DNA of 64,000 nucleotides. Source: an uncultured Candidatus Saccharibacteria bacterium. Its GTDB lineage: Bacteria; Patescibacteriota; Minisyncoccia; Phycocordibacterales; UBA918. Where the stretch lies: the NCBI GenBank assembly GCA_964608605.1, contig CAZSOS010000001.1:117888-181887 (forward strand), given 5' to 3'. The translations under genes were made by a program, and so were the position numbers. A model generated the notes under the pieces. That model had not been told where the DNA came from. It worked only from the letters and a program-made list of their open reading frames with translations, and did not search any database. Within the stretch, counting starts at the first letter, position 1; each line of letters starts with the position of its first letter. Shown here piece by piece: positions 8,679 to 8,836 of this stretch.

Positions 8679-8836
8679 TCGTGATCAGACGGGAGTCAGG
8701 CTTCAGGCTTGGTTCCCGTCTGCTCGTGAGCAGATTATTTAATAGCACTTAGCACTTAGGTTTTAGCGGTTAGGTGTGCCAGCCAAGCTGGCACACCGTG
8801 CTAAGAACCAAGTGCTAATAACTAAAAGCTAAAATT

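Follow-up and report, generated by a model that had tools for sequence, protein, structure and literature searches.

In a 64-kb stretch of DNA from an uncultured patescibacterium (64,000 nt of contig CAZSOS010000001.1, referred to here as the window), the ATP synthase genes atpB and atpE are separated by a spacer containing a long imperfect palindrome, the ends of which resemble the half-sites of CIRCE, the operator of HrcA, and the 3' part of which is found again in front of dnaK. The question that this locus raises is what such a palindrome, with a leader common to two unrelated operons, is doing between the cistrons for the a and c subunits of a single enzyme. A sequence-only reading had offered two answers: a cis element shared by two highly expressed operons, perhaps a translational enhancer or a processing site, or a diverged CIRCE-type operator. 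What that reading had not noticed is that both arms of the palindrome, and three leaders in the window, consist of 7-nt repeats (heptads), that a further hairpin lies directly behind atpB, and that the leader of dnaK is unstructured. As set out below, the element is a heptamer-repeat start-codon leader, of a class known from other phyla, and its mirror-image hairpin form is an addition to that class. The whole of 8742-8836 is best explained as RNA-level punctuation, built from 7-nt tandem repeats, in what is presumably the transcript of the atp operon.

The heptad hairpin between atpB and atpE

The features of the region are listed here in their order along the forward strand. Folding energies are in kcal/mol, and the significance of folding was assessed by z-scores and shuffled sequences (200 of them for hairpin 2).

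7893-8678, + strand: atpB (ATP synthase subunit a), the upstream cistron, an open reading frame (ORF); relatives carry the Pfam domain ATP-synt_A there
8680-8735, + strand: hairpin 1 with a mini-hairpin, CUGC-UCGUGA-GCAG, directly 3' of the atpB stop; -29.2 kcal/mol, z = -3.7
8742-8776, + strand: 5' arm, heptads ATAGCAC TTAGCAC TTAGGTT TTAGCGG TTAGGTG, with a UAG-N4 periodicity and complementary to the leader heptads
8749-8818, + strand: hairpin 2, the long imperfect palindrome of the sequence-only reading, ~29 bp with small internal loops
8773-8797, + strand: core palindrome GGTGTGCCAGC-CAA-GCTGGCACACC, GC-rich, 11 bp and 100% complementary, at the tip of hairpin 2
8798-8836, + strand: 3' arm, identical with the atpE leader, GTGCTAA GAACCAA GTGCTAA TAACTAA AAGCTAA AATT, then ATG
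8837-9064, + strand: atpE (c subunit, 75 aa)

Hairpin 2 has the sequence that had been quoted for it and folds at -42.1 kcal/mol with a z-score of -7.06, none of the 200 shuffled sequences being equally stable. Its two arms are mirror-image tandem repeats with a period of 7 nt, the 5' arm being TTAGnnn five times over and the 3' arm nnnCTAA five times over. Adjacent heptads are imperfect copies of one another (73-86% match between neighbours), and the hairpin could also pair in registers offset by 7 or 14 nt. The first three of the five leader heptads are taken up by the stem, such that the last 18 nt of the leader (8819-8836), which lie outside the hairpin, are predicted to be single-stranded together with the AUG; indeed, 8819-8860 is predicted to be unstructured, at -0.4 kcal/mol. 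A Shine-Dalgarno (SD)-like core was looked for in the leader and none was found.

Several familiar classes of intercistronic element do not account for this structure. Hairpin 2 is followed by UAACUAAAAGCUAAAAUU and not by a U tract, and is thus not an intrinsic terminator; the only entry of the terminator scan in the spacer is the mini-hairpin at 8718-8735, whose T-rich tail is weak. With Rfam 15 at the gathering threshold the window yields tRNA only, and at permissive settings nothing in 8600-9300 scores above 20 bits, where the threshold is 80, this top match, to a miRNA hairpin family, being due to chance. The heptad arrays are not small ORFs, since they have stops in every frame. Stops in all three frames were also considered as a general selected property of the arrays, and this was rejected because ACCCT and CTGT arrays are without them.

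Hairpin 1 is the evolutionarily conserved structure of this spacer, separate from the heptad hairpin and outside the region to which the sequence-only reading had drawn attention. Identical 75-aa AtpE proteins are called on 15 other contigs, and ten contigs that were compared share AtpE with the window but differ elsewhere; hairpin 1 is kept in all ten and also at L001, L002, L062 and L063 (L numbers denote loci of relatives or of metagenomes). Its form is GACGGGAGUCA...UGGUUCCCGUC followed by CUGC-N6-GCAG, in which GUCUGC..GAGCAG is invariant, and compensatory changes are seen at 5 of the 16 pairs. Rfam contains nothing that matches hairpin 1, and together with its mini-hairpin it may represent a cis-acting element of the atp operon not described so far.

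The heptad hairpin has a different distribution, being found among the loci compared only in the window, L001 and L087. The L001-encoded protein, from a patescibacterial metagenome-assembled genome, is the nearest match to the AtpB of the window (82% identical). At L087 the spacer reads AGGTTCC four times, a core GGGACAAAGTTGC-AAA-GCAACTTTGTCC, TAGAACC four times and ATG, giving a hairpin of -59.8 kcal/mol (z = -10.4) in which one position in every seven is mismatched. The three hairpins align in heptad register and their arms differ in a complementary way; in other words, the arms co-vary, which means that pairing has been maintained while the sequence of the unit changed.

Heptad leaders in the window, in relatives and in metagenomes

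The atpE leader has a close counterpart at dnaK. The 18-mer GCTAATAACTAARAGCTA is present in exact copies at 8814-8831 (atpE) and 55665-55682 (dnaK), and with at most three mismatches it has 4 matches in the window where 0.05 are expected; in heptad register the two leaders agree at 24 of 28 bases over the first four heptads before their ATGs. The excess of the 18-mer and the stability of hairpin 2 show that the palindrome and the likeness of the two leaders, as originally described, are real and not a matter of chance.

Moreover, the 64-kb window contains many more such arrays. When the window was scanned for trinucleotides repeated four or more times at constant spacing, period 7 yielded 11 arrays, against 0-1 each at periods 5, 8, 10, 11 and 13, none of them a multiple of 3, and ~0.5 in shuffled sequence. 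All 11 are intergenic and most stand just 5' of start codons, preceding atpE, atpF, dnaK, dnaJ, an RND-transporter-like gene, the gene for ribosomal protein S11, atpA and an ORF at 27920 (TTCAAAA-type heptads are present at 27882-27912); another stands behind the dnaJ stop. The arrays end 3-8 nt before the ATG at atpE, atpF, dnaK, the RND gene and dnaJ. It is mostly internal cistrons that are led in this way (atpE, atpF, dnaK, dnaJ, S11 and the RND gene). The principal leaders other than that of atpE, with the structures attached to them, are the following.

9061-9188, + strand: long complex hairpin of the atpE-atpF spacer, 128 nt, z = -4.7, a member of a dispersed family of ~125-nt hairpins
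9191-9226, + strand: atpF leader, CTATACG CTATCAG CTATTCG CTAAACG CTAACCT T, then ATG; unpaired in the fold with the upstream hairpin
25196-25271, - strand: leader of the RND-transporter-like gene, a GC hairpin, ACCCTTT ACCCTAT ACCCTTC ACCCTAA CTT, then ATG
29831-29902, + strand: leader of a membrane-protein gene (29903), a GC hairpin, CTACGTT CTACGTA CTAATTA CCACTAG CTAAATC TATTT, then ATG
51159-51239, + strand: S13-S11 spacer, A-rich heptads, a loop, complementary U-rich heptads forming a hairpin, more heptads, then ATG; z = -2.8
55652-55685, + strand: dnaK leader, CTAAGAG CTAATTG CTAATAA CTAAGAG CTATCT, then ATG, filling the grpE-dnaK spacer
57548-57603, + strand: dnaJ leader, a GC hairpin GCGTGGCGGC-GAA-GCCGCCACGC, then ACCCTGA ACCCTAA TCCCTTT ACCCT, ATG; -21.3 kcal/mol
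58684-58715, + strand: array of AGGG heptads immediately 3' of the dnaJ stop; its sequence is complementary to that of the dnaJ leader

The GCTAA-rich stretch that had been remarked on upstream of atpF is thus a run of five CTAnnnn heptads. The array before the membrane-protein gene was found by a scan for CTA rather than by the trinucleotide period scan, and has a TATAAT at 29810-29815. The dnaK leader is a direct repeat only, without an inverted partner, and it is unstructured (z = +0.06 and +0.76), so that a reading of it as an RNA thermometer is rejected; folding of both leaders, as had been proposed, hence gives a stable hairpin at atpE and none at dnaK.

Leaders are usually preceded by a very stable hairpin, which is hairpin 2 at atpE, the 128-nt hairpin at atpF, and GC stems with GCGAAGC-type loops at dnaJ, the RND gene and 29903. 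The GC hairpins with such loops, at 25243-25271 (- strand), 57548-57571, 29831-29856 and 58717-58745, are without a U tract. The S13-S11 hairpin is AU-rich (AAAGTTG AAACTTG AAATCTC .. TTCAACT TTGAGAT TTCCACT). The gene dnaJ is bracketed by complementary arrays (57578-57596 and 58684-58715; 19 nt at 89%, 1087 nt apart); the array after its stop is (G3N4)x5, which could form a G-quadruplex, and is followed by the GC hairpin at 58717-58745. The ~125-nt hairpin family has copies in the window at 9065-9190 and 14133-14232, in L081 at 2360-2486 and 2802-2928, in L087 at 1953-2080 and in L082 at 2489-2612; the apical TCGCTGGAC..GTCCCGCTC is conserved, and the arms are of GAAAATATT/AATATTTTC type. The family occupies different spacers in different genomes (atpB-atpE, atpE-atpF, after atpD). 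When the six copies are aligned, compensatory changes appear at 28 of the 39 pairs predicted, and the family represents either MITE-like (miniature inverted-repeat transposable) elements or a structured RNA.

In relatives, the architecture recurs with other units. Sister loci for dnaK and S13-S11 were obtained through GrpE homologues, L091 at 79% identity and L092 and L094 at 71%. The L091 dnaK leader, CTAAACC CTAATCC TTAATCC TAAAATT CT and ATG, retains the CTAA phase with changed filler positions, and L091 shares the S13-S11 heptad hairpin (646-738, with a 10-nt loop insertion), which is absent from L092 and L094, the spacer of the next relatives being 33 nt. Elsewhere, L050 has TAGnnnn four times, a core, CTAAnnn five times and ATG; L052 has CAGnnnn four times, a loop, CTGTnnn four times and ATG; and L001, L003, L020 and L061 have plain heptad leaders. 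The exact sequence of the leader is not kept by the sisters, which on the test proposed with the sequence-only reading would count against a fixed motif; the arrangement, however, recurs, although orthologous spacers often lack it. Over 854 kb of relatives there are 19 period-7 arrays, against 4-7 for periods 5, 8, 10 and 11, and the window and relatives together (~1 Mb) hold 34 non-redundant ones, of which most of those that are intergenic either stop 3-17 nt short of an ATG, on the strand poor in G, or form the complementary 5' arm of such a leader. The excess in relatives is concentrated in a few genomes and, over 968 upstream regions from 80 relatives, lag-7 autocorrelation shows no phylum-wide excess, from which it follows that the heptad habit is confined to certain lineages and loci.

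Beyond these relatives, a scan of public metagenome contigs for exact copies of GCTAATAACTAARAGCTA gave at least 120 matches in at least 109 distinct contexts; the counts that follow hold among the matches listed. The 109 contexts span 28-70% GC, 93 of them (85%) lie within in-register arrays of at least four heptads, and the modal array length is five heptads (50/109). An ORF of at least 50 aa starts within 30 nt in 30 contexts, the products including S10, L32, L17, ClpP, AtpH, Tgt and RNase HI, and the last CTA core stands 5-9 nt before the ATG in 17 of these 30, where ~4 would be expected under uniform distance. A complementary array of TAG heptads within 200 nt is found upstream in 20 cases and downstream in one; the 20 upstream cases fold into long hairpins with a TTAGC arm, a variable core and a GCTAA arm. 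Two of the metagenomic matches could be placed taxonomically through their proteins: the RNase HI of L211 clusters with Parcubacteria proteins, and for the S10 of L107, which is encoded on a 710-kb contig, the identity to named proteins from Parcubacteria, Paceibacterota and Kaiserbacteria is 86-92%. The leader of this S10 gene, CTAAGAG CTAAGAG CTAATAA CTAAGAG CTAATC and ATG, agrees with the dnaK leader of the window in 26 of the 28 bases that make up the first four heptads. Stems of the GGGCGAAGCCC type, similar to the GC hairpins upstream of leaders in the window, flank the GCTAA arrays in L147, L161 and L200. Since the 18-mer recurs in arrays across metagenomes, it is not an operator private to this genome; the motif shared by atpE and dnaK is one favoured form among the GCTAA-type heptamer repeats, a family that is widespread. 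The earlier idea of a shared cis element, with a role in enhancement or processing, consequently pointed in the right direction, but the element is not limited to two highly expressed operons, belonging instead to a class that is spread over the genome and across the lineage.

Some of the contigs that carry the 18-mer also have longer, perfect arrays (L161 7242-7302, L154 7651-7712, L186 from ~5612 on), for example (TAGCTTC)x9, (ATAATTG)x9 and (ACAGCTA)n, so that the same organisms contain both the short, imperfect leaders and long arrays of perfect repeats.

Translation starts and known heptamer repeats

The position of these arrays is best seen against the manner in which genes of the window appear to start. 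An SD core of the AGGAGG type at -11 to -9 is present at 2 of 41 curated starts (~5%), with three more that are marginal, and G is scarce before the start, at 16% over positions -35 to -1 compared with 28% genome-wide. At -14 to -7, GGAG, GAGG and AGGA cores are all missing from the heptad-led genes. The 3' end of 16S rRNA, with the anti-SD, was looked for in the window and in the relative loci examined and is not present in them. At many first cistrons a TATAAT lies 6-12 nt before the ATG (3735, 4753, 14571, 37014, 42173), and such closeness suggests that leaderless or near-leaderless mRNAs are widespread among first cistrons. The promoter of grpE, for instance, is a perfect TTGACA-17-TATAAT (55057-55085, 12/12 consensus) that ends 9 nt before the ATG; no operator was found in its region. 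The promoter scan gave no promoter-like site in the atpB-atpE and grpE-dnaK spacers. Within the atp operon a strong promoter-like TTGACA-16-TAAATT (10/12 consensus) at 10084-10111 overlaps TTTTAAA heptads and lies 6 nt before the atpA ATG; as judged from its sequence, it may be an internal promoter that yields a leaderless atpA transcript. The ORF at 14571-21470, of 2299 aa, combines a leaderless-looking start (TATAAT 8 nt upstream) with stretches rich in Ser, Thr and Pro and an N terminus that resembles a membrane or signal segment.

Heptamer repeats beside start codons have precedents. Mazel et al. reportedly described the STRR heptamer families of cyanobacteria in 1990. Like the arrays described here, cyanobacterial heptamers (in 3-8 copies) are dispersed in intergenic DNA, often less than 100 nt from a start codon or overlapping it, although they belong to another phylum and the mirror-image architecture is undescribed there. 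In Nostoc, TTCAAAA and GAC(C/T)AAT heptamers near start codons are suspected of a role in translation (bioRxiv 10.1101/2022.06.06.494920). The closest class is that of the TAACTGA repeats of marine Beggiatoaceae, some Cyanobacteria and Bacteroidetes, which are mostly in forward orientation and end ~1 nt before the start codon, where an SD would sit, and for which S1, cold-shock proteins (Csp) or CsrA have been proposed as readers, with no function established (MacGregor 2015, PMC4679880). The points of likeness are these: tandem direct repeats of 7-nt units (2-6 copies in that class), nearly all intergenic, in one forward orientation and abutting start codons in place of the SD, which is rare at such genes; ribosomal-protein and other housekeeping genes as neighbours; and stop-rich sequences that do not fold on themselves. 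Even the unit is close, TAACTAA or CTAATAA here. It is not TAACTGA itself, the units here being nnGCTAA, TAACTAA, ACCCTnn and others, and the arrays are consequently a variant of the heptamer-leader class and not the same repeat. They differ further in that the units are degenerate, with a 3-5-nt core and variable filler, that several unit families share one genome, and that the host belongs to the Patescibacteria (Kaiserbacteria-like, at ~55% GC; most AtpB matches are labelled Kaiserbacteria, Paceibacterota or Parcubacteria). Moreover, inverted arrays with long hairpins are common here, whereas the Beggiatoa genome has one indirect repeat against 169 direct sets. No literature was found on heptamer repeats of the GCTAA type, or on heptamer repeats in Patescibacteria or Parcubacteria.

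For the hairpin itself the nearest parallel is the 5' untranslated region (UTR) of hmw1A in Haemophilus influenzae, where a hairpin with (ATCTTTC)n as its left arm is cut by RNase III and expression is thereby raised (PMC12721329). There too the heptanucleotide repeats of a 5' leader form one arm of a stem, and the stem is a point of post-transcriptional control. However, the hmw1A repeats are perfect, exceed ten units, are phase-variable and pair with a G-rich arm that is not a repeat, whereas here both arms are five imperfect heptads, the setting is intercistronic and within a housekeeping operon, and cleavage by RNase III would be a putative step.

As regards place, two further systems come to mind. 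ATP synthase has one a subunit to 10-15 c subunits, and the intercistronic region between the two genes is said to house a translational enhancer of atpE in Escherichia coli (McCarthy et al. 1985) and, in chloroplasts, reportedly the PPR10 site between atpI and atpH (Prikryl et al. 2011). In these cases an unstructured U/A-rich leader, or a processed and protected 5' end, boosts synthesis of the c subunit. The place between a and c and the problem of stoichiometry are the same, but the analogy would be one of function only, the element here having no homology to either in sequence or structure.

The role of the leader and its alternatives

We favour, if tentatively, the reading that the heptad array is an SD-independent, G-poor leader built by slippage, to which at atpE an upstream arm has been added that forms a processing or stability hairpin. 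The leader would serve this lineage as a ribosome landing pad that does without an SD, mostly at internal cistrons, the first cistrons being for the most part apparently leaderless. A run of ~35 nt of G-poor repeats that are not complementary to themselves would be unable to fold, and would span approximately the upstream mRNA that an initiating 30S subunit with S1 reaches. The period of 7 nt would stem from slipped-strand duplication, with selection keeping those arrays that end 5-9 nt before the AUG. At atpE, the upstream arm would turn three of the five leader heptads into a long double-stranded stem, which may act as a processing or stability boundary, either as a substrate of the RNase III type or as a protective 5' stem-loop, and which would also limit the access of ribosomes. 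Such a stem, together with limited access, could uncouple the yield of the c subunit, of which there are many copies per enzyme, from that of the single a subunit. In terms of size the stem is adequate, since an RNase III-type substrate has at least ~20 bp of near-continuous double-stranded RNA, and hairpin 2 has ~29 bp at -42 kcal/mol and its L087 homologue ~45 bp. In favour of the reading as a whole speak the specific, intergenic period of 7, the scarcity of SD cores, the unstructured leaders, the independent recurrence of the architecture with other units, the metagenomic contexts of the 18-mer, and the precedents in Beggiatoaceae and H. influenzae. Position, strand bias, modal length, co-variation of the arms and recurrence across genomes are observed here; transcription, cleavage and an effect on translation are inferred.

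There are observations that weigh against this reading. The element is dispensable over short evolutionary distances. L082, L084, L086 and L090, whose AtpE is identical to that of the window, have after hairpin 1 only a 29-nt AU-rich leader, as has L002, and the dnaK leaders of L092 and L094 are without heptads. The L087 leader is almost wholly sequestered in its stem, and an unstructured pad can therefore be only part of the explanation at atpE. Some heptad-led genes, such as those for the RND pump and the membrane protein, are not obviously highly expressed. Finally, unit sequences vary by locus (CTAA, ACCCT, AAAnTTG), which argues against one specific ligand and equally allows a purely mutational origin.

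A mutational origin is the essence of the view that the arrays and hairpins are neutral or selfish repeat DNA, i.e. slippage arrays together with palindromes that are REP-like (repetitive extragenic palindromic), MITE-like or made by template switching, tolerated in gaps and without dedicated function. G-poor, stop-rich repeats would on such a view be harmless beside start codons and would accumulate in the few non-coding gaps of a small genome. The arrays are indeed patchy among equally related genomes and turn over rapidly; the hairpins resemble insertions of 40-70 nt relative to L092 and L094 (S13-S11) and L082 and L084 (atpB-atpE); other insertion-like long hairpins occupy different spacers in different genomes; and inverted arrays bracket variable cores, in one instance a whole gene. 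Heptanucleotide repeats are, moreover, the commonest long simple repeats of bacteria, probably as a result of polymerase slippage (Mrazek 2007, to the extent that it is summarised in PMC4679880). What neutrality leaves unexplained is the order in the arrays: the strong bias of strand and position, with a G-poor sense strand and the clustering of array ends 5-9 nt before the ATG, the modal length of five units, the topology of 20 to 1 in which the TTAG arm lies upstream of the CTAA arm, the co-variation by which pairing is kept across the window, L087 and L001, and the near-identical leaders before different genes in different genomes. We regard neutral or selfish repeat DNA as rather unlikely.

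It is doubtful, again, that the arrays are binding sites for a protein that reads RNA in a 7-nt register (a cold-shock-domain protein, S1 or a HutP-like ring) and, once bound, recruits or blocks ribosomes, with the upstream arm competing for the leader. Kumarevel et al. are said to have found in 2005 that HutP reads UAG-N4-UAG, and the 5' arm of hairpin 2, UAG-N4 five times, formally has this pattern; HutP, however, is not known outside Bacillus, and the homologous 5' arms of L087 and L052 are without UAG, such that a HutP-like reading of the arm is not supported. The strict period, the conserved 3-5-nt core (CUAA or CCCU) with its variable filler, the array length of about five units and the recurrence of a CTAAGAG/CTAATAA consensus before unrelated genes in different genomes would nonetheless suit a protein reader of some kind. 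CspB binds heptamer repeats with one protein per unit, in keeping with the proposal of Csp and S1 as TAACTGA readers (PMC4679880). Against this, CTAA, ACCCT, AAAnTTG, AGGTTCC/GGAACCT and CAG/CTG units coexist in one genome and at orthologous sites, and so many unit families make a single sequence-specific reader unlikely; nor was a candidate for a heptad-reading protein identified among the window proteins scanned.

A phase-variable switch, in which gain or loss of heptads alters the length of the stem or the distance to the AUG as with (ATCTTTC)n of the H. influenzae hmw genes, is very improbable. The repeat type is prone to slippage, the registers of hairpin 2 shift by 7 or 14 nt, and the heptamer hairpin linked to RNase III in a 5' UTR is a precedent (PMC12721329). 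Yet the imperfection of the units (73-86% between neighbours) suppresses slippage, relatives differ by substitutions or by presence and absence of the whole element rather than by copy number, the metagenomic contexts listed contain no polymorphic pair (there being no informative near-identical pairs among them), and the targets are core housekeeping genes.

Lastly, a diverged CIRCE bound by HrcA, which would co-regulate atp and dnaK at the level of DNA, is hardly credible: although the ends of hairpin 2, TTAGCACTT (8749-8757) and AAGTGCTAA (8810-8818), do each agree at 8 of 9 positions with the half-sites TTAGCACTC and GAGTGCTAA on direct reading, and dnaK is among the genes with a related leader, 52 nt and not 9 separate the half-sites, the 64-kb window has no match to TTAGCACTC-N9-GAGTGCTAA at three mismatches or fewer, an inverted partner is missing at dnaK, both copies are intercistronic (atpB and atpE; downstream of grpE) and not at a promoter, the perfect sigma-70 promoter of grpE is without an operator, and no HrcA domain was found in 20 window proteins scanned or beside grpE-dnaK-dnaJ in L091, L092 and L094. 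The TTAGCAC that passes for a half-site is an ordinary repeat unit, present in tandem at 8742-8755, and other genomes use unrelated units in the same architecture.

A bolder form of the favoured reading, which we consider improbable as it stands, is that about five heptads with CUAA or CCCU cores would be an initiation signal that replaces the SD in Patescibacteria of the Paceibacteria type, read in a 7-nt register by a cold-shock-domain or S1-like factor or by the ribosome itself. The upstream mirror arrays would then be 'anti-leaders' by which the output of one cistron is adjusted relative to the next, for example a against c, and the whole would amount to a modular translational code shared with the TAACTGA repeats.

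If the arrays were only slippage debris, the locus would still be useful as a caution, in that repeats in such genomes can produce apparent CIRCE half-sites and shared motifs as by-products. Otherwise its significance lies with initiation. How start codons of internal cistrons are found is an open question in bacteria poor in SD sequences, among them candidate phyla, Bacteroidetes and Cyanobacteria; heptads directly adjoining start codons had been noted in a few lineages, always without explanation, and the window extends the phenomenon to the Patescibacteria. In this regard, many genomes have the same preferred sequence in front of housekeeping genes that are unrelated to one another, and the mirror-image form adds to it long intercistronic stems. 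The leaders of the (CUAAGAG)n type, with and without a complementary arm, thereby provide a concrete set on which the part played by such repeats can be tested.

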